A DNA stretch of 64,000 nucleotides from an uncultured Clostridia bacterium. Lineage in GTDB: Bacteria > Bacillota > Clostridia > Christensenellales > UBA1242. A program made the translations under genes and the position numbers. Numbering within the stretch: position 1 is the first letter of the stretch; the number at the start of each line of letters is the position of its first letter. Positions 41,540-60,315 of the stretch are shown one piece after another. The DNA lies in contig CAKVFH010000002.1 in the NCBI GenBank assembly GCA_934746515.1, positions 1,576 through 65,575 on the forward strand. Reading direction: 5' to 3'. The notes under the pieces were generated by a model. The model was not told the DNA's origin. It ran no database searches and worked only from the letters and a program-made list of their open reading frames with translations.

Positions 41540-41869
41540 TTAAAATAATGGAACAATAATGCCTGTGAAAATCATGATAATAGCAATTGTCCAAACAACC
41601 CAAATCCAAATTTTTCTTCTGTTTTTGATATATCTAACTGAAAGCAAACAGAGTGCGATCCAGCCAATAGCATTAGCAATTGCTTGAAGTGAATTGATCC
41701 AGCCAGCAGAAAGACCAAATAATTTTAATACCATTGCTAGGAACATTCCAATACCACCAATACAAACAGCAGCGAATGCCAAAACATTCATGAATCCTGA
41801 AAAACTTAAACCGCTTTTTCTAGTTGTTGTAGTTGTAGTTTTTTTCTCTTCTTTTTTTGTAGTTGTCAT
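41540..41869 (-). CDS. small membrane protein with K/T-rich N-terminus
   Basis: 109 aa starting MTTTKKEEKKTTTTTTRK, followed by three hydrophobic helices. It has a strong SD, AAAGGAGG. Confidence 0.55.
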   Translation of the reverse strand: MTTTKKEEKKTTTTTTRKSGLSFSGFMNVLAFAAVCIGGIGMFLAMVLKLFGLSAGWINSLQAIANAIGWIALCLLSVRYIKNRRKIWIWVVWTIAIIMIFTGIIVPLF

Positions 41870-43393: not shown

Positions 43394-46300
43394 CTATTTC
43401 ATATTGTATGCCGATTTATAATCTGCAAGCTTTGCTTCAATTTCTTCAGGCGAACCGCCACCCTTTATTGCAGACATAAGCGCAGCCTTTGCGGCATCTT
43501 GCTGAACACCAATACCGATTTGTTTTAGTTTGCTAATAGATTGTTTGGCAACAGCACTGCCTGGAAAATTATCTCCAATCTTTTTAAGGGTTTCTTTGCT
43601 CTTTTCTGCAACATTTTTAAGCGCTTTGTGTGGGAAAAACACCATATTGAATGTTCTTGTAACAGTTTTTAATGTCTTTTTAACGGCATCAATTGGGCTG
43701 TCTTCCAAAACACCAGGTCCAAGGCCAACAACCGTTTGAATTGCGTCATAGAATGTTGGATTTGATGAATCTGACTTGCCTGATGGAACTATAACTGAAA
43801 ATGCTGCAATTTCAAATATGATTCTTAAAATCTTATTTAAGTATTCGCTTATTCTCAAATAGTTAGGCTCAAAATAGAAATTTCCAACATTTAAAATTGT
43901 CCAAGGATTGTAAAGCGCGTTAGCAATTCTGCCAAGAGCTTTGTTACTTTGAAGATTTGCGGCAGTGAAAATTTGCATTTTATCAATAACTGGAATAATA
44001 ATAAATACAAAATTCAAACTTAAAATTATACCAAATGTTGAGAAAATCAATTGCAAATATTTTTGCATCCATTTCGAATAACTGCCACTCTTTTGAGTTT
44101 TTTCATCATCAAGCGGCATCGTCGCGCATGCAAGCGGATATATCATAATCATCAAGAAAATGTTTATTGACCTGTTTATTAAGCCAAAGACAGCAGTAAC
44201 TAAAACTTTGAAAAATACAACTGAACCAACAACCAAAACAATATAGTTTATGCTCATTGAATCAAATAAACAATTTAGATCCATTCCATACATTTTGGAA
44301 CTTAACTTCGACGACAAGCTATCTGCAAAGAAATAGCTTAAATGCAGTTTTCCATCTTTCAAAACATACACACTTGTCGTTTTGTTTGTGTAAGTTGTTG
44401 AAACTGTTGAATCATCAAGTTGCAAATCCGGCACAAGTTTCAATGGATTAAACAGACCTGAAACAAATTTTTTCACAGAATTCCAGGCACCTGAAATTGC
44501 GGAGCCAACTTTCTGGAAAACATTTTGTTTTTCTCCACTTTCTGATCCGTTTTCTTCCCCTTCAACTTCGATTTCTTCAAGTTTTCCAATATCGGAAACC
44601 GAACCATTAGAAACTAACTCAAGGTCATCACGATAAAACATAATGTTACCATTTGAAAGTCTGCGAATCGCTGTTGGATAAGATGATTTATCAAACAATC
44701 CCCTAGCTGTTATAATGCTTGCTGTCTGAATATATGTGCTAGTAAAAGCAGGGTTGCCATTCACACCAACACCAACCGCAAGTGGCAAATAGTATTCTTT
44801 TATCGAATTACTATAAAGGTCGTCGTACCCAAAACGGATTTTAACATAATTACCTGACTCATCTCTATAATAAAATTTATCTTTCAATGTGTCAGTTACT
44901 TTGCGATATGCATCGCCAATTTTATAATAATACTCTTTTGTTGAATCATAGCTTGCAACTTTTTTGTAAACTTGTCTGTCTTCATCGTAGATATAATAAA
45001 GATCAACTTTTTTGTATCTAGAACTGCTAGATTCCTTAAAATAATATATGTCTGCTTGTTTATATTCATTTGAAGCAGTTTTATAGTGATCACCATTTAA
45101 GCTCTTTTCAAAGTCATCACTAAAAGTGTTTTTATAAGCAACAACAAACTTTGCACCTTCAAACTCATCAACAGCATCTTTAACATGGGTATAGGTGTAA
45201 GTTCCACCTTTTGTATATTTGCTGACATATCTAATGTAAGAATAAGTCAAACTGTCTTGACCTAAAACGCATTTTCTCATGTTTTCATAAGAAATATTTC
45301 CAACACCATCAACAAACAATGTTCCGCTATTGCTATTCAAAAGTCTAATATTATAGCCGCTAACAACTTCTTTAAATTTATCAGCATCATTTGCGGCAAG
45401 TGACTCAAGCAGTTCTTGGATTGTTACAAAATAGTATTCTTCCATTGTGTCAAGCGCATAGCCAATAACATCTGACATAACATAATATTCATTTGCATTT
45501 GTCACAAGTTTTTTATATTTGCCTGCACCTGTTGTTGTTTCGCTATATTCGTTGCTATGATCATAATACTTATAGTAAACACTATTTCTCCAAGCTTCTA
45601 CACCTGAATCATATTTACCCTTTTCAACCGTTGTGTCCGCTAGAACAGGATCACTAAATTCATTACCTATAAAAGTTTCATTTTCATCAAAATATAATAA
45701 ACTTGGAAATTTGTCATTTCCAATCATTTGGACAGTATAGTTTATAGCTTTATCTTTATCGTCGCCTGTAAAGTTGAATTTTATTGGAATTCTGACTCCA
45801 TTTTCTGCATAAAGTCGATATTTATTCGCTGCAGAAGCTGAAGCATTGAACACTCTAGCACTCAACGACTTCGATTTTGACAAATTTGTTGCATTAAACA
45901 AAGCTTGCAACAAAACACTTGATGCCACAATAGAAACTATTGCAATAAGTGGTGTTAAAACAAGCATTAAAAATGATTTTAACACTCTTTTTAAAACATC
46001 ACCAGAAGGATTTTTCTTTGCTTTTTTATCCTTAAAAGCATCTGCCTGCGTTTTTATTATCGCAATTATTGCCGTTACAAGAATCAAAACTATCGCAATT
46101 GCAATAAAGTTTCTAATTATTGTTGTGACAGTTTCTTTGTTGTCTATCAGCAGTTTAAAAGTCATGTCCGAATTTGCTGAATCAATAATTGATGTATCTG
46201 CACTCACACCTGCTAGCTGCAGAATGTAAAAATAAATTACATCAACCATATACATGATCCACTTGCATGCAAAATACAATAGTTGCAAAACTGCTTTTAA

Positions 46301-46426
46301 AACTCTAGTCAAAATATTATCCGCTGATAAAAGCGATGAAATAAAACTATCAGAAGCCAAAAAAGCAGATGAATTATTATTCATCAAAAAATTTGGCAAT
46401 GATATAATATGATTTAAAATATTCAT
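43394..46426 (-). CDS. 1,010-aa polytopic membrane protein, short paralogue of the adjacent giant protein (VirB6-position component, family unknown)
   Basis: Uninterrupted 3-kb ORF; the ATG follows AAGGAG. It has TM helices at aa ~100-175 and ~725-880, a Tyr/Lys/Asp-rich central domain and an A/K-rich tail. Several blocks are colinear with 46445-57514 (see findings). Confidence 0.8.
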   Translation of the reverse strand: MNILNHIISLPNFLMNNNSSAFLASDSFISSLLSADNILTRVLKAVLQLLYFACKWIMYMVDVIYFYILQLAGVSADTSIIDSANSDMTFKLLIDNKETVTTIIRNFIAIAIVLILVTAIIAIIKTQADAFKDKKAKKNPSGDVLKRVLKSFLMLVLTPLIAIVSIVASSVLLQALFNATNLSKSKSLSARVFNASASAANKYRLYAENGVRIPIKFNFTGDDKDKAINYTVQMIGNDKFPSLLYFDENETFIGNEFSDPVLADTTVEKGKYDSGVEAWRNSVYYKYYDHSNEYSETTTGAGKYKKLVTNANEYYVMSDVIGYALDTMEEYYFVTIQELLESLAANDADKFKEVVSGYNIRLLNSNSGTLFVDGVGNISYENMRKCVLGQDSLTYSYIRYVSKYTKGGTYTYTHVKDAVDEFEGAKFVVAYKNTFSDDFEKSLNGDHYKTASNEYKQADIYYFKESSSSRYKKVDLYYIYDEDRQVYKKVASYDSTKEYYYKIGDAYRKVTDTLKDKFYYRDESGNYVKIRFGYDDLYSNSIKEYYLPLAVGVGVNGNPAFTSTYIQTASIITARGLFDKSSYPTAIRRLSNGNIMFYRDDLELVSNGSVSDIGKLEEIEVEGEENGSESGEKQNVFQKVGSAISGAWNSVKKFVSGLFNPLKLVPDLQLDDSTVSTTYTNKTTSVYVLKDGKLHLSYFFADSLSSKLSSKMYGMDLNCLFDSMSINYIVLVVGSVVFFKVLVTAVFGLINRSINIFLMIMIYPLACATMPLDDEKTQKSGSYSKWMQKYLQLIFSTFGIILSLNFVFIIIPVIDKMQIFTAANLQSNKALGRIANALYNPWTILNVGNFYFEPNYLRISEYLNKILRIIFEIAAFSVIVPSGKSDSSNPTFYDAIQTVVGLGPGVLEDSPIDAVKKTLKTVTRTFNMVFFPHKALKNVAEKSKETLKKIGDNFPGSAVAKQSISKLKQIGIGVQQDAAKAALMSAIKGGGSPEEIEAKLADYKSAYNMK

Positions 46427-46444
46427 CTGCTCTAGCTCCTTTTT

Positions 46445-49400
46445 TTATTCAAAATTCTTTTGGAAATCTTGTTTGAATTTTTGCATCTGCTCTTTATCTT
46501 TCTTCTTTGCTTCTTGCTTCTTTTTATCTGCTTCAGCAACTGCCGCACCTGCAGCTTTTGCTGTTACTGGGTCGATACCGGCTCCTTGAAGTGCCACTTC
46601 AATTGCTTTTTGTTCAGCTTGAATTTTGATATTTTTTACTTTATCAACCATAGGATCAACAAATTTTTCTTTTGCTGCCTTTCCAACTTCATAACCCGGA
46701 ATCATGCTCAAAGCAGTTTCTTTGGCTTCTTGCATCAAACCAAGCATAGCTTTTCCGCTGACAACAGAACCAATTTGAGCCGCTGTTTTTTCAACACTAC
46801 TCTTAACCTCTTTTGCTTTATCCAAGAACTTTCTGCTTCCTTCGCCAAGACCTGGGTCTGGAGATGAAAGGTTTCCATGGTTTGCCGTGATGATTGGTAA
46901 AATCAACTTTGGCATTCTTTCAAGAATTGAAACAGCAGTTATTACCCACAAACACCTTACAAGATTGTTGATTGTTGGATAGCTGAAGAATCCGCCAATT
47001 CCGCCAATTGAAACAATTTTGTTAAATGTTTCGACAGATACGAAAGTTTTAACACTATATATCATTGGAACAATAATCGTAAACGATGAAAATCCTATGA
47101 TATATCCAAACACACCCAGAAGCACACTTTCGATGTTTTTCTTCCAGTTTGTGTATGTTTTATTTTTTCCGTCAGGATACAACGAATTGGTAGATATAAC
47201 AAGTGGACTGGCGATAAACAAGACAATAAGATCAAATATTCTCGTCACAACACCACCCAAAGCATTTATCATAACAGGAATAATTGTGACGAATGCTAAC
47301 ATCAATAGAACCCATGTCTGTCCGCCAAACAAATAAAAGTATGAGAAATCATCAAGCACGTCAATTGCACCGAACTCATCTGATTGAAGCATTAAATATT
47401 CAACTTTCGATTGCACAAAATTTGTGTTTACATCTGACTTAACAATGGTTTTTAAATTTGTTTTGCCAGTGTAAGTTGTGGCAGAACCAATACCCTTTGT
47501 ATAAGATGTTCCGCTGACATATTTTGTGTAATTTTTAGTTGTAATCCTGCTAACAGCCTTTGAAGCATCAATAAGGTCTTCACCTGAACCAAAGTTTCCG
47601 CCAACATTTGTTCTGTAATATGTAACAGCATTGTATGTTTCAGATGAGCTTCCAATCAATCTCTTTTGTTCAATAACCAAAGGATTGTTATATTTTCTAA
47701 TTGCCGTTGGATAGCCATCGGCAGTTATAACACCTTTCATAACAACAACATAACCACCAGTATCGTAATAATCGGTTACAAAAGGTTTGCTATCATAAAT
47801 TTTTTCTAAATATTCATCATATTTGTCTGATGAATATCTGTATGAGCCTGAACCTATCAAAGGATAATATAACCCATTTTTATAGGTGCAGACTATGAAC
47901 GAGTCACCATACGCTTCATCGTAATAATCACCCGTTCTAGTTCCTGAATATTGTCTCGTTAGCACTTCTCTAGTTGGTCTGTTTTCAAGCCCAGACAGTT
48001 TTTTAACAACTTCCAAAGTGTTGTCTGACAATGTAAATACTGCTTTCAAATCACCAGTTCCAGCATAATTTTCAACCTGCGACTTATCACCATTATTTGA
48101 ATTGTAAATCTTCACAATTTCCTGATAAGTAAGTGAATTATCTGCATTTCTTGTGATGTTTGCTTTTGGAATAATTCTTCCAACTTCTTTTCCATCTGAA
48201 GAAAAGTCAATTTGAAGCCCTATAAGATTGAAAAGTGCCATATATCTAGCAGATCTTTCTTCTGGTGTTTCTGAAGTGTTTTGTTCATTATCAATAAGTT
48301 TTTGAAGAACAATTCGTTTGAAGTCTTCATAGGTTATGTCTTCAAGTTCTTCTGCATCGACTTCGTTTGAGAATAAGTAAAGTGCCACAGCAACAAACTT
48401 GTCATGGACATTGTCTTTTCCGTCAATCAAGCGATTAACAATATTCGAGTCGATTTGTGATGCCATTATTGAATATAGCATCTCTTCTATGCTTGAAGCA
48501 GTTATTGTTGCACCAGTCGAGTCAATAAAACTGCAAGAAATAGCATCAGAAATCTTTACAGCATTAACCTTTCCTGTGTCAAGATCACCAAGATTTGTCA
48601 TGAAATAAATTTCAGCTGTTTCATCAGCAATCTTTGAAAGGAATCTGCGAAGTTCTGGCCAAGTGTCTAGGTTTGTCTTTAAAACCTTGTCAACATTGTC
48701 ATAAACTTTTGATGCTTTCACAATGCCTTCAAATTCGGCTGTTGTGTATTGAGCACCAACACCAACTTTTTCAAGGAATGCTCCACCATAAACATATTCT
48801 GCAAGTCTTGATGGATCTGTGTTACTTTTGAAAGTGTAATTTTTGTTTCTAACACTAAAACTATAGCCACTTGAAACATAGTTTGCACCAAATTGCGCCA
48901 AGGTGAAAGTGATGCTTCTCTTGTACATTTGGTCAATTCTTCTTTGTGCAGTGATATATTGGTTAATATTATATTTCAAATCTTGGAATGCAGATAAAAT
49001 TGCATCAAGCTGTGTATCTGAATAATAATGAGAAGTATCACCAATTTGTCTGTCACAACCATTGTCGGTAGTTTCACCTGGAAGAGTAAACCTGATTGCC
49101 TGAAGCTCGCCAATTATTGAATCAAGTCTTTCACTAAATTCAAGAATTTTTGCCCATGATGTTTCAGTGCTTAAGTCTGCAGGAAGAAGCTTGTCTATAA
49201 CATCTTTCAAAATATCAACGATTTGGAAAGATGAATCTTCAGAGAAAGACATTCTGAAATATATTGATACACTATTATCTTTAATGAAATCCAAGTCCGC
49301 TGTAAGTGATGCATTATTATCAAACAAATCATAAGCATTTACAATTGGAAGAATACCATTATCTCTAATAGAATCACCTATACTATCTTTAAAAGTATTT

Positions 49401-52400
49401 ATTTTATCTAAAATCTCAAGAAGAGATTTTAACTTCCCAACGATACCTTCGTTATTATTATCACTGAGAGCAATTCCTGGAAGATATAATCTAACAGTTG
49501 TTGCAAATGACAAGCCTTTGTAAAGAACTAATTTTGCTTTATCCATACCTGCAGTTTCATAGTATTGATCTGCGGTGTCAATATTCTCACCCTTTAAAAT
49601 ATTCCATCTTGAAATATTTCCGTCAATATAACTTTTATATTGGCTCAAATAAATTGGTTCACCTCTTCTGCCGAGTTCATATTTAATCTCCCAATAAACA
49701 TGAATCATGTAACAGAAAATATACTCTTTGCCTGCATAAGATTCAACTTCTTGTGATTCAGAATCTATAACCTTTCCACTTTCAGAAATTGTGTAGCCAT
49801 TATTATAAATATCTTTATAGTCATTATCCATTGCTTCAATAACTTCTTTTAAAGTCAATGTATAATATAAACTACTTGAAACCACAGTGTCATAATTATA
49901 TCCAAGCTTATCGCCTGCAGTGGTTTTATCTTTATATTTGCTGTAAGCCTTTTTAAAATTAAATGTAAAAGTTGGCTGATTATTTCCGCAATATTCGTTC
50001 TCATATCGAACAAGCTGTTCAAATGTTGCATATTCAAACGAATCAATTGTGTTACCTTCTTCATCTTTAAGGTTGTTTACATAGCTATAGTATGAAGCAT
50101 AGTCACCAACCGCGCTTGCAAGATATTCACCAATTGTGTATTCTGAATAAACTCTTGTTGCAACGGTGTAAAGATACTCGCCGATATCAGATCCCAACAA
50201 TAGTGTTGCGAGATATGATTTGTATGCGCAAAGTCTTAAACTGTTAGAACCAATGTCTTCACCAAATTCTGTTGCAAAGTCATCAATAATTGGTGCAAAG
50301 CATGAATTGAAATAATCCATGAATACTTCAGCTTCAAAAACCAAAGCATTGTAACATTCTTCACCCATGAGCGATAACATCAAAGCTCTGATTGTGTTTT
50401 TATCAAACACTGAACTATATTCATAGTTTGCATAAGAGTCTGAAACTTCAGTTGCAACTGACATAAAGAATTCTGAGAGAACCAAGCCAGCGGCTGTTGT
50501 ATTTGAAGAATTTTGTCCTGAAATATACAAGCCGTTTGTGTAAGCTGATGTAAATTCACCAAGTGTATCAAGCCAGCCATCTGTTGCGAGAAGCACTCCC
50601 CAGTTGAGATCTGGATAGTAAATTTGCATATCATTCATGAGTTTTTCAACCCAAGAAACAGTTTTTATAAGTGTTTTTACTGAATATTTACCAAATCTTG
50701 AAACATTGATTCTAAAGTTTGCATCAGCGACATTTGTGTCAATATATTTAAAATAAATAACATCACCAATTTGATAAGAAATGTTGTTTTTATCTCTAGT
50801 CACTTGCATAGATCCAACATAAGTTGGATTTAGTGATAAATCTAATGTCTCATAAAGCGCTCTAAAATCGTATTTATTGATGTTTGCATCACTTGCTGTA
50901 ACAAGCCCATTCAATGTTTTTGTTGGATCAACAGTGTCAGCCAAAGTCGTTTTGAGATCTTCATATTTGGTGGCATTCATTTTAGTAGTCTTTCCAACAT
51001 AAACATCGCCATTCTTCTCAACTATGCCAGAAATATTATAAAAATTATAGTTGATATACAAATAAATTTTATCACCATCAATATAGATGTCGTTAATATA
51101 GTAGTCATCCGTCATCAACTCTTCAAAAGACATACCTTTAAACTTGTTGTGTCTGATTCCTTCTCTTGAATATTCATAAACCATGATATAGTCTAGAACT
51201 GTCCAATTTGAAATATCTTTTAGTTTGAAGTCTTCAGATGAAAATCTCAAGTTTAGAGTACCACGCTCAAGAGATGATTCACCGGTTTTTATAGCTTCGC
51301 TAACAGTTTGTGGAACATTCATAAGACCAGAATCTTTCAAAATTTCTGAATTAAGGTTAAAGTAGAAATAGTTGTCAAATTCAAGGTCTGGGAACACTTG
51401 ACTATATTCAAGTTTCATAACAAGTGTGTTTGCAGGAGCTCCCGGATTGGTTGTACTTATTGCAATATCAAGTTCATTGACTTTTGTTGTTGTCAAATAA
51501 CCCTTTAAAAACTTGTCATAGAACTCAAAGAACTTGTTATAATTGAAATAAGAACCAGTTTTGCCAGTATCAATTGCGCTAAAATCAATAACCTTTTGTA
51601 TTGTTGTGCTTCCAGAAGTTTCATCTTCTTTATATAAATAATAAGTTCTAGCTGGCACACCACCGGCATTTGCAAAAGTTTGGAAATTTGTAGCTGTAAA
51701 TGTTGTTTTTAAAACATCAGTTCCGCTAATAAGAGAAGCTTTGTCTATCCAAGACCTAGTTTTAATCTCTTCAATCTTCTCACTCATTGTCTCATTTGTT
51801 AAAATTTCATCAATTTCAAGCGACTCAATCTGCATTTTCATAAAATTTAAAGCCACTTCATCTGAAATACAAATTACCTTATTTGTTTCTACTAAACCAG
51901 TTGTGTCAATCATTTCCAAATAATAATTTTTGGTTGCTTCTGAACCAGCAGTCGGATAGATGACATTAAATTTATAAGAACTTTTTGCAGAAGTTAAATA
52001 TTTATATTGAGTTACGCCATCAACAGTTTCCGTTCCATAAAATTTACTAAGAATAACATCCATATATGTTAATCCATAGTAGTTATCGCCTTCTTTTGAA
52101 AATTTTGGAACATATACAAATGGGAACGAAATTTTAAACTCACTATTACCAAAGTAGCCATTTGAGAATGCGTAATAAATAATATAGTCTGAAACTTTCC
52201 ATGTTGTGTAATCACTAACATCAAAAGCATCCGAGAAATCAACTTTCTGGAGTGCTCCACTTGTTGCTTTCCTTAAATTTTCATTTTCAAAAGTATCAAT
52301 ACCATCCGATATGGTTACATTTCCAATCAATTTACGTTGAACAGCACATGGTTTTATGGTTGTCAAGGCATACATAAGTTTAATAACACTTGTATCGACG

Positions 52401-55400
52401 ATTTCACCTTTGTTGTTAGAAACGCCTTTAAATACATTTTTAAAATCGCCTGAAACTGGAATCATAACATAAGTTTCATTGAATTTTACATAGTATCTTC
52501 CCTGGTAAACATAAACAACACTTGCAATATATGAACCAAGGGTTGTGCCGGTTGTGTATGAAACAACAAAATCAATTATGTTCCAACTTCCAGACTGCGA
52601 AATTGGCAATGTTTTTTTCTCAAATATTGACGCCCTATTTAAATCTGTGATTTGGTCGACATCATAAATTGGATTGCCATCAACATAATGCGGAGTTTCA
52701 GCAACTTTTAAATACCAAAGCGTGTTAGATGCAACATTTGCATCTGGCAACCCAAACACGCCATAGTTCTTATTTTCTGAACTACTATACATGTTGTAGA
52801 TAATGTAGCCTTTACCACTATCATCTTTAATCTTAGTTAGTTCATAAACTCCCATGCAACTATAGCCTTTTGAAGCAATAATTGAAGATAGTGGAGAGCC
52901 CGAAACTATGCTTATAGCAGCTGTATATGTGAATAGTTGTTTTTCAAAAAGATTAAAATCACTAGGAATAATATAGGTTTCATCCACACCTTCAAAAACA
53001 TAATAGCTTGAGCCATCTGCATAATATTGATAAACATATTGATTGTTACGATTTGGGTCAATATATGCGCTAAATAAACCCATGAGTGTCCAATTTCTAT
53101 AAGTATTAGATAAGTCAGCAAGTTGTTCTACATAACTTGTTACATCAGTCTTAAAAGTTGAAAATGAACCGGTAGCGCTAATGTCAAGAGAACTATTGCT
53201 AAAATATTTTGGAGTGTTAAACTTATCAACAGTGGCATCCAAAACATTAAGGTTAAACAGTCTCCACATCATTTTTTCATATTCAGCATTAGCGAGTGTT
53301 GCGCCTGTAACATTTCCACTTGTATAAATTAACGAGACATTTACAAGACCATCCAAAATGATATACTTGTTACTTTCTTCATCATAAAGATAAAATTTTC
53401 CATTTCTATCTTCCAACAACTTACAATCGGAAATATCAGCAACTCCGAGTTGTTTTAAAATAATTTCAATTCCAGTCCAAGATGAATATGCTTCAAAATC
53501 CATATCACTAGGAGCATTTATTGCGATTGAAGAATACTCATTTTTAACACTTGGCATAGAATCTCTAACGAATGTGTCTTTATAGTAAAGATTATAAAGC
53601 AAATCAACATATTCTTCTTTTGAGAACTGACCTGTTGAAACAGAATTTGCCGCAAGTGTCTCATCATAAAACAAAATTGTATCGTTAATCTTAATATATT
53701 TTGTATTATCACCTTTAAACTTATAGATTGTATAGGTTTGTGATTGTGATGAGTTAAGAATTGAATAAAGAAGTGCATCAAATTGATTTACCGTTCCACC
53801 AAATGAAGAATACTCGCCATCTTTAGCAAATATAGAAGCTTGTTTTGAAATTAGTGAATTGGTTTCAAAATAAATCAAAGCGCTAGTTCTTGAAGAAATA
53901 CCAAGGTATAATCCGTCTTTCAATTTAATATAAGTTTCACCATTTTGGCTGTATGCGTCAAACAAATAATATCCATCACTTGTCATTGGCACATTGTTTT
54001 TAACCAAAACCATGTCAAGATCTGAATAGATTGTGTTTATAGAAAAATTCGCATTTCCACTACCCTTCAAATTTGTTGAATAATAGTAAAACTTACCAAG
54101 CGATGTTTCATCAGTAAGTGAATCTGCTGTGCTATTTGCGAAGTTGTTGTTATAGTAAATATTAAAATTGTTAAGCGTTGAAAAACTTCTTGAATTCTTG
54201 GCAAAAAGTCGATTTGTTAAAAGCTTTCCGCTATCAGTTAAACATTGTTTTAACCCTACACTAGAAATATCAACAAAATAGTCACCCACTTCCATATAGA
54301 TATTTGTGCTATTGAAAAGGCGTGTTTTATATGGATTTTCTGTTGTTGGAAGAGTTCCAGTAAGCTCAAAAATAATAAGGTCAAGATATCTCCATGTCGA
54401 CAAATCATTTGCGTTGATTTCAGGGTTTGAGTAGGTGTAATCAAGCATTGTTATGTCATTTTTAACTGCTTCTTTCTTGAGAATTTCACGAGCCAAAGCA
54501 TATTGAATGCTCTTTATGTTTGTATAATCTCCATTCATGCTATAAATGTAAGCATCCGGATTAGAAACAACACCGCCCGCAAAATCATTTTCATTAAACT
54601 CAATGTCTGAAGGGTCAAGTCCATACATTTGAACCAAAATATATGACATTAAATTTGTATTAAACCATTTTTCAACAGTATACCCCAACTCCGAAATTTG
54701 TGATTCATCAAGATAAAATGCATTGCCGTCTCCAAATCTTCCGAAGCGATAATATCTTTTGCCGTCAACTTCGTAAATAACTGAAGAATAGCCTTGCAAT
54801 TCAATCATGCCAATGTCTATGTTGATAATTCCATTGCTTGTGAGATAAATCATCAAATAATCGCCAATAGTCCAAGTTCTTGCATTGTAAGCATCAAAAG
54901 TTTCAGACAAATAGAAAACCTTTGTTGAAACAGCACTATTTATCAGCCTGTCTGTGTCAAGATTTTCCGTGTAGTTTGAAACAAGATCAACACCTGAAAG
55001 ACCAAGATTCATATTATCAAACAAATCTGGTGAAATGGTTGAAGTGATTTTAAGTTCAGATGTTTTGCTAAACTCTTCAAGGTCAAGATAATATGTTGTT
55101 GTCCCAACCTTGATAGACATGTAGTATTTTCCACCACTTGAAACTCCAATATCACCCGAAAGCCCAAACACACGAAGCGAATCTGTGGTTATTGTGTTTC
55201 CTGTTGTTCCAGAAATTTTAGTGATATAAAGATACATCAAAGCATAGTCTCTAAATGTCCATGTGTCGCTGTTATAAAAAGAAAAATCTTCAGATAACTT
55301 TGTATTCATTTTTGAATATTTCTGATAGTATGCATTTGTTTCTTTAATTTGGGTAAATGCAGCAGGTTCCGCAGTTGTAAACAAACTTCCAAGATTTCCA

Positions 55401-57514
55401 ATTCCATATTGAGCTTGATTTTCGGCTGATAGTTTATAAGAAAAATATCTTTCTCTCGCACTCGTTGTTGGGATTAAAAATGTACCATTATCTGTATTGC
55501 CTGAACCAAAGCCAGCAAAAGCATAATATGTGCCATTGATATAAATGTAATTAACACCATTGATTTTGTAAACTTCAAAATCTACACCACTGACAAAATC
55601 GGTGAATTTGTTTGTTCTTCTGAGTCCGTTTGAAAGTGAAAGATCCTTGAAATATTCATAAATCAAAACTTGTGATGTGAATCCCCAAGTATCCGAATTA
55701 TTCAAGTCAAAAGTTTTGCTATCTCTACCAGTTAATTTTAAGTTTTTGGTACCATTCTTTTGGATTGTCAAAACTGTGTTTGTGAAATAGTTAACTTCTG
55801 GATCTATTACGTCCAAAACAAAGTATGCATGACCATAATCATCAAAATATTCAGTTGATTCTTTTAGTCTATAATATGTTCCATTGAGTTTAACACAATA
55901 AAGTGTGTGCTCTTCTGAATAGGTCTTTGTGTTTGAATTATAATTTCTATAAGTCATTTCCAAAGCGTCAAGTTTTGCACCATATTTTTGCAAATCTTCA
56001 AGAGTATAATCTTCCAATGTGTTGTTTGTTGAACCAAAGGCATTTTGGAAGCGATAATATTCATAAACAATGATTTGGTCTGAATATGTCCAAGTGGTTG
56101 AATCATCAAGTCTGAAACCACTCAATCTGTTCCAGTTGTTATCATAAACAGTTGAAAGTTTCAAAAAGGCTTTTCTGGTTGCCCAAGAAACAAGATTTGT
56201 GAAATCACCTGAATCATCTCTTTCCATTTCATTAAATTTTGATGTTTCACCATTAACGCCCAAAAGTGTTGAAGCGGTTTTAAGAGCATCAGAAATTGGT
56301 GAAGTTAAGTCAAGTTTTGTTGTTAAACTTAAAGAATAAGAGTCATCTGTTAAATCTGCCGCATTTGTTGTGAGTGAAGGACTGTTTACAATTTCAGCAT
56401 TGCGATATTTGATGTTCAATGAAATATCTGAAAGTGCATTTCCGTCATTATCTATCTGTGCAGAGATATTATCAACATACTTCCAGCAGATATCTGGTTC
56501 TGACATTGCTTTGACATAATATTTGATATTATATCTTTGACAATAGTCAACAAAATCAGCCAAAACATAGTATTGTTCTCTCGTGCAGATAAAATTTTCA
56601 AAATAATCACCAAGATCTTCATAAACTGTGTTATTTATAGTGAGAGAATAGTTTTTGTAACTCTCCCATGTTCCACCAGAGTTTGTTGTTGATTTCTCAA
56701 AAGGCAAGAAACTATCGTTTGCAAAAGCACCACCGATAGCTTTTAAAATTTCTTGAGTTTTTGGGTCTTGAATTGATTTTTTGATTTCTTCATCGCTGCG
56801 AGAAGCACCAAACGCGTTCTCCATTGAATAAACATTGATTGTTATTGGAATACGCTTGTTTGCATTTGCATAAGCTCTGTATCTATTTGCATCATAAGTT
56901 GATGCTGCAAGCACATTTCCAGCAATTGTTGTGTCGCTGTAATTTCCTATCGCACGATAAAATGATGTTAAAATTGCATTAGTTCCAACAATCAGTGTGT
57001 AGAAAATAAGTGGCATTAAGAAAATTGTGACAATATTTCTTAATAAAATTTTGATTAGTTTTCCCTTTTGGTTATCGGCTTTTTGATAGCCATTTGTTGC
57101 AAGCTTATATTCTTGCATAACCATAGAAATTATTGTAAATACAATCATCAAAATGATTGCAACACCGAAAACTGCTCTGAAAATTTTTAACAAATAATCA
57201 TAATAATTTGATCCGTTTGTTGTGATAGATTTCAGACCATCAATATATTCTCCAAGCGATGTGCTTGTGTTTGTTTTTAAATCTAGTCCTAAAAGTCTTG
57301 TGAATGCAAGTTGCATTGCATCAATAATGCCTAAAACCCATTTAGTAACATACCAAATATACTTTGTAATAAAATTCCACACAACACCAAATACATTCAT
57401 AAATGTATTTGCAATTGTTCTGCCAATCATCTTAAGCCAAACCAAAGGCCAAGACGCATCAGCAACAAAATTTGCAGCACTATTTGTTAGGAATTTGCTT
57501 ACAAAATTTAACAT
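46445..57514 (-). CDS. 3,689-aa giant polytopic membrane protein with tandem Trp/Tyr-signature modules (VirB6-position component, family unknown)
   Basis: Uninterrupted 11,070-nt ORF in AT-rich DNA; across the same span the other frames give only 60-135-aa fragments. The ATG follows AAGGAGAA. It has TM helices at aa ~110-180 and ~3398-3535, an ectodomain of about 3,200 aa and an A/K-rich C-terminal tail. Confidence 0.85.
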   Translation of the reverse strand: MLNFVSKFLTNSAANFVADASWPLVWLKMIGRTIANTFMNVFGVVWNFITKYIWYVTKWVLGIIDAMQLAFTRLLGLDLKTNTSTSLGEYIDGLKSITTNGSNYYDYLLKIFRAVFGVAIILMIVFTIISMVMQEYKLATNGYQKADNQKGKLIKILLRNIVTIFLMPLIFYTLIVGTNAILTSFYRAIGNYSDTTIAGNVLAASTYDANRYRAYANANKRIPITINVYSMENAFGASRSDEEIKKSIQDPKTQEILKAIGGAFANDSFLPFEKSTTNSGGTWESYKNYSLTINNTVYEDLGDYFENFICTREQYYVLADFVDYCQRYNIKYYVKAMSEPDICWKYVDNISAQIDNDGNALSDISLNIKYRNAEIVNSPSLTTNAADLTDDSYSLSLTTKLDLTSPISDALKTASTLLGVNGETSKFNEMERDDSGDFTNLVSWATRKAFLKLSTVYDNNWNRLSGFRLDDSTTWTYSDQIIVYEYYRFQNAFGSTNNTLEDYTLEDLQKYGAKLDALEMTYRNYNSNTKTYSEEHTLYCVKLNGTYYRLKESTEYFDDYGHAYFVLDVIDPEVNYFTNTVLTIQKNGTKNLKLTGRDSKTFDLNNSDTWGFTSQVLIYEYFKDLSLSNGLRRTNKFTDFVSGVDFEVYKINGVNYIYINGTYYAFAGFGSGNTDNGTFLIPTTSARERYFSYKLSAENQAQYGIGNLGSLFTTAEPAAFTQIKETNAYYQKYSKMNTKLSEDFSFYNSDTWTFRDYALMYLYITKISGTTGNTITTDSLRVFGLSGDIGVSSGGKYYMSIKVGTTTYYLDLEEFSKTSELKITSTISPDLFDNMNLGLSGVDLVSNYTENLDTDRLINSAVSTKVFYLSETFDAYNARTWTIGDYLMIYLTSNGIINIDIGMIELQGYSSVIYEVDGKRYYRFGRFGDGNAFYLDESQISELGYTVEKWFNTNLMSYILVQMYGLDPSDIEFNENDFAGGVVSNPDAYIYSMNGDYTNIKSIQYALAREILKKEAVKNDITMLDYTYSNPEINANDLSTWRYLDLIIFELTGTLPTTENPYKTRLFNSTNIYMEVGDYFVDISSVGLKQCLTDSGKLLTNRLFAKNSRSFSTLNNFNIYYNNNFANSTADSLTDETSLGKFYYYSTNLKGSGNANFSINTIYSDLDMVLVKNNVPMTSDGYYLFDAYSQNGETYIKLKDGLYLGISSRTSALIYFETNSLISKQASIFAKDGEYSSFGGTVNQFDALLYSILNSSQSQTYTIYKFKGDNTKYIKINDTILFYDETLAANSVSTGQFSKEEYVDLLYNLYYKDTFVRDSMPSVKNEYSSIAINAPSDMDFEAYSSWTGIEIILKQLGVADISDCKLLEDRNGKFYLYDEESNKYIILDGLVNVSLIYTSGNVTGATLANAEYEKMMWRLFNLNVLDATVDKFNTPKYFSNSSLDISATGSFSTFKTDVTSYVEQLADLSNTYRNWTLMGLFSAYIDPNRNNQYVYQYYADGSSYYVFEGVDETYIIPSDFNLFEKQLFTYTAAISIVSGSPLSSIIASKGYSCMGVYELTKIKDDSGKGYIIYNMYSSSENKNYGVFGLPDANVASNTLWYLKVAETPHYVDGNPIYDVDQITDLNRASIFEKKTLPISQSGSWNIIDFVVSYTTGTTLGSYIASVVYVYQGRYYVKFNETYVMIPVSGDFKNVFKGVSNNKGEIVDTSVIKLMYALTTIKPCAVQRKLIGNVTISDGIDTFENENLRKATSGALQKVDFSDAFDVSDYTTWKVSDYIIYYAFSNGYFGNSEFKISFPFVYVPKFSKEGDNYYGLTYMDVILSKFYGTETVDGVTQYKYLTSAKSSYKFNVIYPTAGSEATKNYYLEMIDTTGLVETNKVICISDEVALNFMKMQIESLEIDEILTNETMSEKIEEIKTRSWIDKASLISGTDVLKTTFTATNFQTFANAGGVPARTYYLYKEDETSGSTTIQKVIDFSAIDTGKTGSYFNYNKFFEFYDKFLKGYLTTTKVNELDIAISTTNPGAPANTLVMKLEYSQVFPDLEFDNYFYFNLNSEILKDSGLMNVPQTVSEAIKTGESSLERGTLNLRFSSEDFKLKDISNWTVLDYIMVYEYSREGIRHNKFKGMSFEELMTDDYYINDIYIDGDKIYLYINYNFYNISGIVEKNGDVYVGKTTKMNATKYEDLKTTLADTVDPTKTLNGLVTASDANINKYDFRALYETLDLSLNPTYVGSMQVTRDKNNISYQIGDVIYFKYIDTNVADANFRINVSRFGKYSVKTLIKTVSWVEKLMNDMQIYYPDLNWGVLLATDGWLDTLGEFTSAYTNGLYISGQNSSNTTAAGLVLSEFFMSVATEVSDSYANYEYSSVFDKNTIRALMLSLMGEECYNALVFEAEVFMDYFNSCFAPIIDDFATEFGEDIGSNSLRLCAYKSYLATLLLGSDIGEYLYTVATRVYSEYTIGEYLASAVGDYASYYSYVNNLKDEEGNTIDSFEYATFEQLVRYENEYCGNNQPTFTFNFKKAYSKYKDKTTAGDKLGYNYDTVVSSSLYYTLTLKEVIEAMDNDYKDIYNNGYTISESGKVIDSESQEVESYAGKEYIFCYMIHVYWEIKYELGRRGEPIYLSQYKSYIDGNISRWNILKGENIDTADQYYETAGMDKAKLVLYKGLSFATTVRLYLPGIALSDNNNEGIVGKLKSLLEILDKINTFKDSIGDSIRDNGILPIVNAYDLFDNNASLTADLDFIKDNSVSIYFRMSFSEDSSFQIVDILKDVIDKLLPADLSTETSWAKILEFSERLDSIIGELQAIRFTLPGETTDNGCDRQIGDTSHYYSDTQLDAILSAFQDLKYNINQYITAQRRIDQMYKRSITFTLAQFGANYVSSGYSFSVRNKNYTFKSNTDPSRLAEYVYGGAFLEKVGVGAQYTTAEFEGIVKASKVYDNVDKVLKTNLDTWPELRRFLSKIADETAEIYFMTNLGDLDTGKVNAVKISDAISCSFIDSTGATITASSIEEMLYSIMASQIDSNIVNRLIDGKDNVHDKFVAVALYLFSNEVDAEELEDITYEDFKRIVLQKLIDNEQNTSETPEERSARYMALFNLIGLQIDFSSDGKEVGRIIPKANITRNADNSLTYQEIVKIYNSNNGDKSQVENYAGTGDLKAVFTLSDNTLEVVKKLSGLENRPTREVLTRQYSGTRTGDYYDEAYGDSFIVCTYKNGLYYPLIGSGSYRYSSDKYDEYLEKIYDSKPFVTDYYDTGGYVVVMKGVITADGYPTAIRKYNNPLVIEQKRLIGSSSETYNAVTYYRTNVGGNFGSGEDLIDASKAVSRITTKNYTKYVSGTSYTKGIGSATTYTGKTNLKTIVKSDVNTNFVQSKVEYLMLQSDEFGAIDVLDDFSYFYLFGGQTWVLLMLAFVTIIPVMINALGGVVTRIFDLIVLFIASPLVISTNSLYPDGKNKTYTNWKKNIESVLLGVFGYIIGFSSFTIIVPMIYSVKTFVSVETFNKIVSIGGIGGFFSYPTINNLVRCLWVITAVSILERMPKLILPIITANHGNLSSPDPGLGEGSRKFLDKAKEVKSSVEKTAAQIGSVVSGKAMLGLMQEAKETALSMIPGYEVGKAAKEKFVDPMVDKVKNIKIQAEQKAIEVALQGAGIDPVTAKAAGAAVAEADKKKQEAKKKDKEQMQKFKQDFQKNFE
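51155..56107 (-). repeat. protein-level tandem module array inside the giant ORF
   Basis: About 10 copies of a [D/N][S/T]xTW-x3-DY-hh-Y-hY signature occur every ~130-170 aa, each followed by a G-x-YY / YYxh strand-like motif. The Trp codons have upper coordinates 56092, 55687, 55261, 54874, 54394, 53479, 53092, 52585, 52201 and 51205. Confidence 0.7.
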
Positions 57515-57537: not shown

Positions 57538-60228
57538 TTATTTTGCGTCGTCTCTGAGTTTTTCGAATAAGTTTCTAACTCTGTCGTTAACCAAGACATC
57601 GACATTTGTTCTTGAGTAAGGACTTGTCATCAAGAACGCCCTACCACGAGGGTTTGTACAAATTGTGTCTTGCTCTTTTTCGTTGATTTTTCCGGCTTTT
57701 TCATAAAGAACAACCAAGTCGGTGATATCTTGTGGAGCAAGTGAGAAGATGAGTGAATATTGACAAGCATTGATAATAGCCATTGATTTTCTTGCAATTT
57801 CAGGCGAACCAGTAAAGTCTTTGATGTTCTGTGTGATAACAATTTGAGAACCTTCATATTTTCTGATACGTTTTGCCATTTGTTGCATGAAGTCAAGAGC
57901 AACGGTTTTTCTAGGATCGATGAATACATGGGCTTCATCGATAACTACAATAACTTTTCTTTTTGTGTGGAATCTCGCGTTGTAATCCTTGTTATTGATA
58001 ACTTCGTTGTTAAGCCAACGCATAACCAAAAGCATTTGCGCATTTGCAACAGCGCCGGCATTATTTGCAAGAAGTGATTGGAAGTTAAACACGATGAAGT
58101 TTTCTGCTGAAGAAATTGTTGATGGACCATTCCAAAGAACCGCGTTTCTTCCGCCTTCAGCAAATTTATTAAGATAGATTTTCAAAATCTTATAGTTGTT
58201 TCTGTTATAATCATCTGTTGAGTTTTCATAAAGCTCACAAATGTAGTTGTAAAGGTCTTGCATGATTGGGAACTGCTCTGGCTTTACATTTTCAATTTGA
58301 GTTGAATTTGTGATACCAAACTTACCATAAAGCTCTTTTAATGCTTCATTCAAAAGTTCCATGCCGTCCATTGTAATACCATCAAGAATCATTCCGAAGA
58401 ATGTTTCCAAGAACTGCATGTGCATAGCAAGAGCAACATTACCGCCACCTGCTTCTTCATCGTCTTGAGAAGCATTAACTTGAAGTGGATTGATACGACC
58501 TTCACGAGCAGAACCTACATCAATAACTTTTCCGTACATATTTTTAGCAATGATGTCATATTCTTTTTCAGGGTCGAGAATGAAGATTTTACTGTTATCA
58601 GCAGCAAGGTTTGCAAGGATTGATTTGGTACAGAATGATTTACCGCAACCAGATTTACCCATGATAACCATGTTTGAATTGATACGCTCTTTGTCTCTTT
58701 GGAAGAAATCCAAAAATACTGGTTCAGAGTTCATACCAACATAGAAGCCTTTAGGGTCTTGAATAGCATCTGAAACAAATGGGAAAATTGCTGCAAGTGA
58801 TGAAGAATTCAAACCTCTTTCAAAACGACGAAGTTTCATACGTCTTGAAACATTGCAGTTTGTGAAACCTTCTTTTTGTTTTCCGAAAAGGTCGTAGCAT
58901 CTAAAACCTGCACGAAGAACTTGTGTTCTAAATGCTTTCTTTTGTTCTTGTTCAACCATCATATAGATGTTTGTATCCAAAAGCATTTCTGAACCTTGCT
59001 TAATATAGGTTAAAAGCTCTGTCAAAGTTTTTAAGTGGGTTTCATTTTCCAAAACCGCAGAAGCCTTTGCACTGCCTTCAGAACCCGCCATTCTAACATT
59101 GATGATAGCCTTATCCAAACGCTTTTCAGCTTCATCTTGACCAACTGGTTTAAACTTAACGCAAACTTTGGCGCCAGGAACAGAGAAGAATGCTCTTCCC
59201 CAAGCATTTGGAACAGACAATGGATATTCAGAAAGTTGGAATACTGTTTGCGCTTTTCCATCAATTGAAAGTCTGTTTAAACCAAAGGTAACTTTGTCTG
59301 GAGCAACCCAGTCCAAAAGTTCTTTTGGATCAAGTTTTTTAACATCTCTTTCATCAAAATTCGAATTATAAAAACTCTTTAAGAAAATTGCTGTTTGGTT
59401 TCTGTCAAGAATTTTTGGTTCAATTGCACCGCCAGAACCACTTTCAATTGTGCTTGCTGCAAAGTTTACAACTTGCAAAAGGTTTTTAATGTTTTGACAG
59501 AAGAACGCAATATACATGTGGTCTTTGATAACAGGAAATTCACTGTCAACATTCATTTGCTCAAGGTTTTGAATTCTGGCTTCAGCGATTTCAAGTCTTG
59601 GTCTAGCTTCGTTAATGTTTGTTGAACCATTTCTAACTGAATCAAGAATTTCTTCTCTCTTTTTGCATTCGTTGTCAATGTAGTTATCAAAAACCATAGG
59701 TCTTGAAAATTTGTAAATTGCACCAAGTTCATCTGTGCCGATTGTCTTGAATGCATTTTCCAAAGTTTCAATATATGAATTTTGTCTGGTTTCAGAAATC
59801 AAATAAAACTGGATTGAGTTAAGTTCGATTGCTGCACCAAAATATTCTTTGTAATCAATAATACCGATTTTTCTCTTTTCGTCGTAATCTTGTTCCAAGA
59901 TGCCAATGTATGGGAAAAGTGCTTTTACGTCTTTGTTTGAGCCAGAAGATTTTTTCATTCTTTTGTAGGTGTTTATACCAAAGAAATATTTAAACAAATC
60001 ACCCACTTGATTATACATTTTTACGCCTGGTTCAAAACTCATAAAAAGAATACCAAAAACAAGACCAGTGACACCAGTTAGTACAAGTTTTGTTACAGTC
60101 GAAAAACCACTTGTCCAAGCAAGTGCAAGAATAATAAGTGCGAATAAAATGACAAAAATGTCTCCAAAATTCAAACCCTTAATAAACTCAACTTTAACTT
60201 TAGTTGACTTAGGTATCATTCTCTCCAT
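57538..60228 (-). CDS. VirB4/TraE-like T4SS ATPase with N-terminal VirB3-like membrane hairpin
   Basis: 896 aa from the ATG at 60228, 9 nt after AGGAGAA (the ORF-track start at 60306 is TTG). It has two TM helices near the N-terminus, Walker A GKSGCGKS (58636-58659), ILDPEKEY and Walker B VIVVIDEAH (57928-57954), then ..QIVITQNIKDF. Size and motif order fit VirB4-class members of the FtsK/HerA superfamily. Confidence 0.75.
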   Translation of the reverse strand: MERMIPKSTKVKVEFIKGLNFGDIFVILFALIILALAWTSGFSTVTKLVLTGVTGLVFGILFMSFEPGVKMYNQVGDLFKYFFGINTYKRMKKSSGSNKDVKALFPYIGILEQDYDEKRKIGIIDYKEYFGAAIELNSIQFYLISETRQNSYIETLENAFKTIGTDELGAIYKFSRPMVFDNYIDNECKKREEILDSVRNGSTNINEARPRLEIAEARIQNLEQMNVDSEFPVIKDHMYIAFFCQNIKNLLQVVNFAASTIESGSGGAIEPKILDRNQTAIFLKSFYNSNFDERDVKKLDPKELLDWVAPDKVTFGLNRLSIDGKAQTVFQLSEYPLSVPNAWGRAFFSVPGAKVCVKFKPVGQDEAEKRLDKAIINVRMAGSEGSAKASAVLENETHLKTLTELLTYIKQGSEMLLDTNIYMMVEQEQKKAFRTQVLRAGFRCYDLFGKQKEGFTNCNVSRRMKLRRFERGLNSSSLAAIFPFVSDAIQDPKGFYVGMNSEPVFLDFFQRDKERINSNMVIMGKSGCGKSFCTKSILANLAADNSKIFILDPEKEYDIIAKNMYGKVIDVGSAREGRINPLQVNASQDDEEAGGGNVALAMHMQFLETFFGMILDGITMDGMELLNEALKELYGKFGITNSTQIENVKPEQFPIMQDLYNYICELYENSTDDYNRNNYKILKIYLNKFAEGGRNAVLWNGPSTISSAENFIVFNFQSLLANNAGAVANAQMLLVMRWLNNEVINNKDYNARFHTKRKVIVVIDEAHVFIDPRKTVALDFMQQMAKRIRKYEGSQIVITQNIKDFTGSPEIARKSMAIINACQYSLIFSLAPQDITDLVVLYEKAGKINEKEQDTICTNPRGRAFLMTSPYSRTNVDVLVNDRVRNLFEKLRDDAK

Positions 60229-60315
60229 AAATGTAAATTCTCCTATATATAATAGTATATAACTTTCGCGTTTTTCAAGCAAATATATACTTGCATTTTG
60301 TGACAAAAATATGCT

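Follow-up and report, generated by a model that had tools for sequence, protein, structure and literature searches.

VirB6/TrbL proteins are polytopic membrane proteins encoded beside VirB4, and the VirB6 protein of R388 forms a membrane-proximal stalk above the VirB3/VirB4 ATPase of the type IV secretion system (T4SS) (reviewed in PMC12857230). In Gram-positive bacteria, the VirB6-like proteins of the MPF-FA class (MPF, mating-pair formation), such as Orf15 of Tn916, have 700 to 900 amino acids (aa), and the VirB6 partners of VirB4 ATPases of the Mollicutes/FATA kind have ∼300 aa (PMC12857230). "Extended VirB6" proteins combine the VirB6 helices with a large central or C-terminal hydrophilic domain; the role of these extra domains and the passage of Gram-positive T4SSs through the thick wall are open questions in the field (PMC12857230). 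Here, we analyze two adjacent genes in a 64,000-nucleotide (nt) stretch of DNA from an uncultured Clostridia bacterium (GenBank assembly GCA_934746515.1, contig CAKVFH010000002.1, positions 1,576 to 65,575; this whole stretch is called the window below). The genes encode proteins of 1,010 aa (the short protein) and 3,689 aa (the giant) and follow a gene for a VirB4-like ATPase. The original prediction took the two proteins for paralogues, with the giant resembling the short form with ∼2.7 kaa (thousand aa) inserted into its ectodomain. We find that they are built on one membrane scaffold, distantly related to a compact protein of integrative conjugative elements (ICEs) of Mollicutes, and that they are probably VirB6-like components of a chromosomal T4SS.

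In kind, the closest precedent is provided by the arrays of extended VirB6 proteins in Rickettsiales. Ehrlichia and Anaplasma have VirB6-1 to VirB6-4, and lengths of 4,322 and 9,935 aa are given for VirB6-4 of Anaplasma phagocytophilum (PMC7648143). As in the window, several tandem paralogues of very unequal size lie next to virB4, the giants are built with repeats, and the duplication is old and retained. The hosts of these arrays are diderm Alphaproteobacteria, and the likeness is one of kind, with no sequence relationship detected. The Anaplasma VirB6-4 extension is described as C-terminal (PMC7648143), whereas the window giant is expanded centrally, between transmembrane (TM) helices TM3 and TM4; C-terminal growth occurs here in a third paralogue, which we call pos0.

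In sequence, the nearest precedent is a compact membrane protein of Mollicutes ICEs and plasmids (families NF045889 and NF045848). It has a homologous helical core with the two halves in the same order, and its gene likewise adjoins a VirB4 gene of the Mbov_0397 type. The Mollicutes proteins have ∼300 to 350 aa and a short loop (∼17 aa in Spiroplasma) where the window proteins have ∼480 aa (short) and ∼3,180 aa (giant). Unlike the Mollicutes members, the window proteins score under the curated NCBIfam cut-offs, and their genes are chromosomal, in walled spore-forming Clostridia with two to three paralogues, rather than on ICEs or plasmids. The window VirB4 is itself of the Mollicutes/FATA kind, yet its putative partners have 1,010 to 3,689 aa rather than ∼300 aa.

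A chromosomal T4SS in a monoderm, with VirB4, VirB6, VirD4, and several VirB2-like pilin genes, is known from Patescibacteria (Saccharibacteria) (PMC12857230). The window lineage resembles it in being a monoderm with a chromosomal locus, and two pilin-like genes are present in relatives of the window organism; in contrast to Patescibacteria, no VirB1-like or VirB8-like genes were recognized in the visible DNA of the window lineage, and giant VirB6-like paralogues are not reported for Patescibacteria (PMC12857230). VirB6/TrbL proper (TrwI of R388, PDB 7O3V/8RT9; Pfam TrbL; TIGR02783) shares with the window proteins the polytopic build and the place beside VirB4 but has no significant sequence or structure match to them. 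Three features are new: the host group (walled gut Clostridia), in which the locus is chromosomal; the insertion of a conserved ectodomain at a single point of the compact fold, together with a further 2.8-kaa repeat-bearing insertion; and the presence of three positional paralogues with different places of growth.

The short protein and the giant are paralogues

The two genes and their modules are as follows.

43394..46426, minus strand: the short protein, 1,010 aa, paralogue at position 2 (pos2); defined by its open reading frame (ORF), ortholog set, and profile mapping
45413..46423, minus strand: N module of the short protein (aa 2-338), with helix 1, TM2 (46055-46111), a basic loop, TM3 (45908-45964), and the first half of the ectodomain; carries the motifs AN.YR.YA..RIPI and EYYVMxD
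43472..44923, minus strand: C module of the short protein (aa 502-985), with the second half of the ectodomain, the TM bundle (43991-44245), and an A/K-rich tail
46445..57514, minus strand: the giant, 3,689 aa, paralogue at position 1 (pos1); defined by its ORF, with orthologs at the same position in relatives
56498..57508, minus strand: N module of the giant (aa 3-339), homologous to that of the short protein, with TM2 and TM3 at 56969-57172
47957..56377, minus strand: giant-specific insertion (aa 380-3186, ∼2,807 aa), which replaces ∼22 profile positions; predicted extracytoplasmic domain
46490..47956, minus strand: C module of the giant (aa 3187-3675), with the second half of the ectodomain (DExxGxxF, YPTAIR), the TM bundle (47066-47314), and an A/K-rich tail

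Both ORFs (43394..46426 and 46445..57514) are present exactly as first called. BLASTP with compositional adjustment aligns the proteins in two colinear blocks, short 37-338 with giant 40-339 (E = 4e-17, 22% identity) and short 728-986 with giant 3401-3645 (E = 1e-12), with just 22 to 23% identity in both. Compared as profiles, ortholog alignments of 48 short proteins, 17 giant N termini, and 11 giant C termini pair short 2-338 with giant 3-339 (probability 99.6, E = 3.9e-24) and short 502-985 with giant 3193-3644 (probability 99.3, E = 2.1e-20). Smith-Waterman scores were compared with global shuffles and with 300 shuffles within 10-aa windows, which keep hydrophobic segments in place. The N block scores 211, against 40±6 for global (z = 27) and 71±15 for windowed shuffles (z = 9.7); the C block scores 198 (z = 26.7 and 10.4), and the TM bundle alone reaches z = 13.3 and 7.8. 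Because these scores far exceed those of segment-preserving shuffles, the similarity is not an artifact of composition or of TM helices, and the refuting condition set with the original prediction (statistics no better than for shuffled low-complexity sequence) does not hold. BLASTP, profile-profile, and shuffle evidence agree, and, judged from their sequences, the 1,010-aa and 3,689-aa proteins are true paralogues, as originally proposed.

All seven shared elements first seen by eye are real. The N-terminal peptides align in the profile-profile comparison, and both proteins have the TM2-basic loop-TM3 layout (short aa 106-124 and 155-173; giant aa 115-133 and 153-182). A 21-mer, 12 of whose 21 positions are identical, contains the most invariant residues of the family (AN.YR.YA....RIPI); its true ends, 45782-45844 and 56843-56905, are 3 nt off those first given. 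A YYV(M/L)(S/A)D motif near aa 314 and the C-terminal TM bundles align by both BLASTP and profile-profile comparison. The motif (S/G)YPTAIR(R/K) pairs short 582-588 with giant 3267-3273 in the profile comparison; plain BLASTP misaligned it. The A/K-rich tails are a real block, but their alignment is weak and of low complexity and adds little evidence. Conserved motifs outside the TM helices (AN.YR.YA..RIPI, EYYVMAD, DExxGxxF, YPTAIR, and FYRD) are invariant across the 1,443-cluster family described below.

One scaffold with insertions in the ectodomain

We mapped both proteins on a reference profile built from 27 minimal relatives of 810 to 973 aa. The giant matches profile positions 13-370 (aa 8-379) and 393-838 (aa 3187-3675). 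Because the profile is interrupted at one point only, the giant consists of the common scaffold and a single insertion of ∼2,807 aa. The short protein matches positions 27-438 (aa 18-455) and 423-807 (aa 539-990) and has a private insertion of ∼85 aa (aa 455-539) at profile position ∼430, some 40 to 60 profile positions beyond the insertion point of the giant. Thus, the picture of a short form with ∼2.7 kaa added in the ectodomain was anatomically right, the insertion lying between TM3 and TM4. The short form is not, however, the ancestor of the giant: the two proteins belong to separate ancient ortholog groups.

The scaffold core comprises three hydrophobic helices in the N-terminal part and a bundle of three to four in the C-terminal part. 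The TM2-TM3 loop of the short protein has 9 Lys or Arg among its 30 residues; in the giant, 5 of the 23 loop residues are Lys or Arg. The stretch before TM4 is acidic. From the basic loop and the acidic stretch, the positive-inside rule predicts that the segment bounded by TM3 and TM4 is extracellular. This hydrophilic central domain has about 480 to 550 aa in the short protein and about 3,180 to 3,200 aa in the giant. In an AlphaFold2 model of the short protein, computed with 40 orthologues, aa ∼200 to 600 are confident (predicted local distance difference test [pLDDT], 75 to 90) and form an alpha/beta part followed by a beta-rich part.

Within the insertion of the giant, a hidden Markov model (HMM) seeded on a recurring motif, D..(T/S)W..xDY.i.Y.Y, from the window giant only, identifies repeats.

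54101..56221, minus strand: a tandem array of five divergent ∼140-aa repeats (aa ∼432-1138) that share the motif D..(T/S)W..xDY.i.Y.Y; the last (aa 990-1138) is weak
50915..52339, minus strand: two further copies of the ∼140-aa repeat (aa 1726-1867 and 2059-2200), found by the seed HMM

The units lie at aa 432-577, 560-708, 702-851, 846-975, (990-1138), 1726-1867, and 2059-2200. When each copy was left out of the model in turn, six of the seven scored 10 to 28 bits, whereas 100 shuffled giants never exceeded 7.9 bits. The repeats are detected by the HMM only; comparing the giant with itself by BLAST does not reveal them. Applied to orthologous giants, the same HMM recovers four to eight copies, positioned as in the window protein, and the pos1 giant of the distant lineage L035 has ten. 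Because the copies recur at matching positions, the repeats are old and conserved in place and not a recent amplification. On this profile evidence, the insertion is built in part from at least six to seven old, divergent ∼140-aa repeats. No part of the giant matches a family in Pfam, PHROGs, or PADLOC.

Homology to a compact ICE membrane protein of Mollicutes

Among named families, the two proteins match NF045848 (MMCAP2_0566 family conjugal transfer protein; E = 3.5e-24 for the short protein and 3.4e-14 for the giant) and NF045889 (Mbov_0396 family ICE transmembrane protein; E = 6.7e-18 and 1.9e-11). When fragments were scanned, short 58-235 and giant 46-213 correspond to positions 2-179 of the compact profile, and short 715-858 and giant 3397-3506 correspond to positions 181-294. 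Both halves of the ∼320-position helical profile are thus present and colinear in both proteins. Because the N and C fragments cover adjoining profile positions, the entire ectodomain is inserted into a compact ∼320-aa fold at a single point. By these profile matches, the short protein and the giant are distant homologs of the compact ∼320-aa ICE membrane protein of Mycoplasma and Spiroplasma. A member of 347 aa on a Spiroplasma poulsonii plasmid has ∼17 aa at the point of the ectodomain insertion, and its gene adjoins those of an Mbov_0397-type VirB4 and a protein with a T4SS DNA-binding (coupling-type) domain. Mbov_0397 is the TraE/VirB4 protein (CDS17) of the Mycoplasma bovis ICE (PMC3365025); by gene numbering, Mbov_0396 is ICE CDS16, and the Mbov_0396/MMCAP2_0566 family (ICE CDS16) is VirB6-like according to the literature.

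The homologs form a natural size series on one scaffold, from ∼320 aa in wall-less Mollicutes through ∼810 to 1,010 aa to 3,689 aa, with the mass added at one defined, predicted extracytoplasmic point that is conserved by gene position across lineages.

Family size and evolution

When the short-protein profile was run with HMMER against all 1.84 billion cluster representatives, 1,443 clusters (at 50% identity) matched at E ≤ 1e-3, 191 of them at E ≤ 1e-30. Further members of varying length, which the original prediction proposed to look for, are therefore plentiful; among the best 150, lengths range from ∼810 to 4,833 aa. The family is without a Pfam model, and no Pfam domains were found in 15 of its long members. 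Its genes are among the largest in these gut genomes, and a family model would better the annotation of many gut metagenome-assembled genomes (MAGs) and supply a defined structural target, the wall-spanning part of a monoderm T4SS.

Module mapping reveals two independent growth sites, the middle and the tail behind the TM bundle. The middle grows from 30 to ∼1,440 aa among the matches listed and to 2,800 aa in the window giant; the tail grows by up to 3,396 aa. The prediction that both ends form a common scaffold was correct, but variation in the family is not confined to the central domain.

A neighbor-joining tree of N modules groups the proteins by gene position across genomes, not by genome, into pos0 (upstream of VirB4), pos1 (the giant), and pos2 (the short protein). 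This grouping indicates that the duplications predate these lineages and that the short protein is not the parent of the giant, the two belonging to separate ancient positional ortholog groups. The giants are 26 to 47% identical where VirB4 is 77 to 91% identical, and the short proteins are 46 to 51% identical where tig (trigger factor) is 84% identical. Such fast evolution relative to the neighboring genes fits surface exposure.

As an observation on the short lineage, one pos2 orthologue of 1,492 aa (P0050; locus L031, 3207-7685) carries an extra ∼470 aa after the C module, that is, growth in the tail.

A VirB4 neighbor and a conserved secretion locus

The genes for the two paralogues stand in a tight row on the minus strand, which runs from an ORF that leaves the window through genes for a 781-aa protein, the 922-aa ATPase, the giant, and the short protein to lspA. 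The other members of this row are as follows.

62704..64000, minus strand: C-terminal 431 aa of an ORF that leaves the window, probably the tail of the third (pos0) paralogue, judged by C-terminal identity; the frame is open to base 63999
60316..62661, minus strand: K/E-rich protein of 781 aa without TM segments, homologous to parts of pos0-type C-terminal tails
57538..60306, minus strand: VirB4-like conjugal-transfer ATPase of 922 aa, identified by Pfam, NCBIfam, and a TM hairpin
42823-43278, minus strand: lspA, followed by rluD, two small membrane ORFs, tig, clpP, and clpX

Gaps of 23 nt (VirB4 stop to giant) and 18 nt (giant stop to the ATG of the short protein) each contain the Shine-Dalgarno sequence AAAGGAG. 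The ATPase matches Pfam P-loop_TraG (6.3e-19), AAA_10, and DUF87 and scores 566 bits with NCBIfam VirB4_plasma/Mbov_0397 against a cut-off of 590. Its closest plasmid relatives are encoded by Spiroplasma plasmids and Mycoplasma ICEs (28 to 32% identity), and the pairing of an Mbov_0397-type VirB4 with a member of the family, here 23 nt upstream of the giant, recurs on the Spiroplasma plasmid. An N-terminal hairpin of two TM helices (aa 50-89) is possibly a fused VirB3-like element. The annotated start of the ATPase is TTG; relatives align from about residue 16-27, so the true start may lie downstream.

The arrangement is conserved among relatives. VirB4 proteins 77 to 91% identical to that of the window were found in 19 genomes, and in all 17 contigs that continue past VirB4, a giant follows directly (2 of the 17 are interrupted by the contig end). 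Five further loci, fetched via the short protein, have the giant, the short protein, then lspA (in four loci) and rluD-tig-clpP-clpX. Read from both sets of loci, giant orthologs at the same position have 3,590 to 3,932 aa; ∼50 short orthologs have 987 to 1,084 aa and 39 to 98% identity, apart from the one of 1,492 aa. Distant lineages keep the same gene order, with the larger paralogue after VirB4 and the smaller one last: in L034, VirB4 is followed by a 2,114-aa member, an 810-aa member, and then GAPDH and Rnf genes. A homolog search with the C-terminal 700 aa of the giant found just four proteins.

In relatives, the head of the locus, which corresponds to DNA past the window end, encodes a divergently transcribed VirD4 coupling protein, two small two-TM proteins next to it, and a third family member of 3,567 to 4,833 aa upstream of VirB4. 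The small proteins (99 to 113 aa; L037, 649-1397; L035, 8727-9546) are paralogous to each other and are encoded upstream of the third paralogue. Their matches to Pfam PF18895 (T4SS_pilin) are below threshold (E of 3e-5 to 5e-2; best 24.4 bits against a cut-off of 26.6), and we regard them as candidate VirB2-like pilins of a monoderm bacterium.

In the window itself, the 431 visible residues of the ORF at 62704-64000 are 33% identical to the extreme C termini of two family members (P0168 and P0197). Counted from an internal ATG, the ORF has 423 aa, and its homologs in L003 and L037 are pos0 proteins; a homolog search with the fragment itself found no match, and it is not recorded as a called gene. 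A third, tail-extended pos0 paralogue of ∼3,500 aa thus very probably starts just beyond the window end. The 781-aa protein, K/E-rich and probably coiled-coil, matches segments of pos0 tails (P0191, aa 4205-4673). Several relatives carry its counterpart fused to the end of the upstream giant, which indicates gene fission or fusion within the locus. No Pfam domains were found in the neighboring locus proteins searched.

Some loci among the relatives deviate. In L017 (10166-20088), a frameshift or an assembly error divides the giant between two ORFs (2,065 and 1,252 aa). In L003 (1-2510), masked stretches of N interrupt the upstream giant, and the small ORFs that appear there are therefore artifacts. 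A second class of VirB4 loci (L022 to L029, 38 to 46% identity) occurs in similar gut Clostridia MAGs without the scaffold family at E < 1e-3. In one of these (L024, 12699-22673), the gene after VirB4 is nevertheless an ORF of 3,325 aa or more without detectable similarity, perhaps a separate instance of a giant gene behind VirB4.

Chromosomal setting

Elsewhere, the window holds genes for SpoIVA, SpoIIP, FtsZ, a penicillin-binding protein, Mur ligases, and EngA (a dcw cluster and sporulation genes). Since it contains cell-division, cell-wall, and sporulation genes, we conclude that the DNA is chromosomal and comes from a walled, endospore-forming Firmicute. The nearest public records are gut MAGs of sheep, goat, deer, and human, named "Clostridia bacterium." The GC content is ∼0.32 to 0.36 all along, with no step at the locus, and equals that of the flanks. 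"Hodor" gut megaplasmids, which encode giant proteins (PMC12934698), were considered and rejected as the source: their GC content is 44 to 47% against 32% here, and their giants are signal-peptide/sortase proteins, whereas the window has chromosomal dcw and sporulation genes.

Probable VirB6-like components of a chromosomal T4SS

The paralogy of the two proteins, the anatomy of the insertion, the homology to the ICE family, the operon linkage with VirB4, and the age of the duplication are all established features of this locus. We consider it likely that the two ancient tandem paralogues, members of an uncharacterized family of "extended" polytopic membrane proteins, are VirB6-like (translocon/stalk) components of a previously undescribed chromosomal, Mollicutes-ICE-related (MPF-FATA-like) T4SS in spore-forming gut Clostridia. 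Like VirB6, they are polytopic, with five or more hydrophobic helices by hydropathy and AlphaFold2, and lie beside VirB4; VirD4 and pilin-like genes occur in the locus in relatives. If the core is VirB6-like, the short protein and the giant fit the definition of extended VirB6. The original reading of the pair is supported; it had included neither the T4SS locus nor the homology to the mycoplasma ICE membrane protein.

Several observations weigh against a VirB6-like identity. The scores with NF045848 (85.7 bits for the short protein and 52.9 for the giant) are under the curated cut-off of 90, and those with NF045889 (65.2 and 44.0 bits) are under the cut-off of 70. The paralogues have no Pfam TrbL/VirB6 match, a profile search of PDB sequences yields neither TrwI nor any other T4SS protein and only noise, and Foldseek searches of the PDB with two models find nothing significant (best E of 0.36 and 0.57). 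In the AlphaFold2 monomer of the short protein, the TM helices are poor (pLDDT of 50 to 60), and the topology derives from hydropathy and charge bias. VirD4 and the pilin-like genes are seen only in relatives, as the window ends before that part, and no VirB1-like, VirB8-like, or relaxase gene was recognized in the visible DNA. On the other hand, two relatives (P0101, 108.6 bits; P0057, 98.5 bits) exceed the NF045848 cut-off of 90. TrwI/VirB6 chains of R388 are among the top Foldseek matches of the two independent models (ranks 26 and 48 for one and 3, 4, 5, 8, 12, and 15 for the other), but these matches are nonsignificant (E of 0.7 to 4.4, probability of ≤0.33, TM-score of 0.23 to 0.30). TrbL_P (TIGR02783) matches the N fragment of the giant only (17.2 bits, E = 0.0026, against a cut-off of 128.85). 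From the homology to the ICE family and the linkage with VirB4, we infer that the paralogues are VirB6 equivalents.

In such a machine, the paralogues would assemble above the VirB3/VirB4 ATPase, probably as a hetero-oligomer, as has been proposed for the VirB6 paralogues of Ehrlichia and Anaplasma. Their shared helical cores would form a membrane-proximal channel or stalk, as VirB6 does in R388, and the conserved two-part ectodomains would take the machine into and through the thick peptidoglycan. The repeat-bearing extension of the giant may reach beyond the wall as a surface contact or conduit element for a partner cell, and the VirD4 coupling protein encoded at the locus head in relatives would feed the presumed substrate.

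More tentatively, and with considerable doubt, the locus may encode a vertically inherited T4SS owned by the host and used other than for the spread of mobile elements. Three VirB6-like paralogues, one expanded outside the cell, one in its C-terminal tail, and one short, would together with VirB2-like pilins replace wall components of the VirB1/VirB8 type and form a conduit through the peptidoglycan to another cell. Gram-positive bacteria would then have their own equivalent of the VirB6 arrays of Rickettsiales and of the T4SS of Patescibacteria.

Alternative explanations

Alternatively, the locus could be an integrated conjugative element or its remnant, and the paralogues could serve mating-pair formation in ordinary DNA conjugation or chromosomal transfer, like proteins of mycoplasma ICEs, and not a host-owned secretion system. 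Proteins of Mollicutes ICEs and plasmids make up the nearest named families, VirD4 stands at the locus head in relatives, and the flanks differ in deep lineages (GAPDH/Rnf in L034, comEC-holA-rpsT in L035, and lspA-rluD-tig in the window), all of which would suit such an element. However, neither an integrase, relaxase, or transposase gene nor a repeat boundary was seen in the readable flanks, which reach upstream as far as VirD4, and the downstream junction with lspA-rluD-tig-clpP-clpX is kept where the paralogues are only 46 to 55% identical. VirB4 identity (77 to 91%) tracks that of housekeeping genes, the locus has the GC content of its flanks, and the short protein has no match in 72,556 plasmids. 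Synteny, uniform GC, and the absence of plasmid homologs thus disfavor a recently mobile element, and we regard this explanation as unlikely. It bears on the use of the machine and not on the identity of the two proteins.

If the two proteins were surface adhesins or cell-envelope components without a role in secretion, linked with VirB4 by chance, they would also have large, repeat-bearing, fast-evolving ectodomains without a recognized fold, and would lack a significant VirB6 match by Pfam, PDB sequence, or structure, as is the case here. Incidental linkage is hard to reconcile with the order VirB4, pos1, pos2, which is kept across lineages whose paralogues are ∼25 to 35% identical, or with the homology of both core halves to an ICE/plasmid conjugal-transfer membrane protein that also adjoins VirB4; we consider it quite improbable.

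That the similarity is a by-product of hydrophobic or low-complexity composition, without real paralogy, might be suggested by the 22 to 23% identity, the A/K-rich tails, and the share of the match in TM helices, but it is refuted by scores 9.7 to 10.4 standard deviations above window-preserving shuffles, by profile-profile E values of 1e-20 to 1e-24, and by the invariance of non-TM motifs across the 1,443-cluster family, which leave it practically no chance.

Other ORFs in the window

A 665-aa ORF with a GTG start (23373-25370, minus strand) lies in the cell-division/cell-wall region and has no Pfam match at E ≤ 1e-5. Between rluD and tig, at 41204-41521 and 41540-41869 on the minus strand, are two very hydrophobic ORFs of 105 and 109 aa. 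They have no family match and no similarity to the pilin-like proteins of relatives; both are kept in relatives by position and by sequence (51 to 74% identity).

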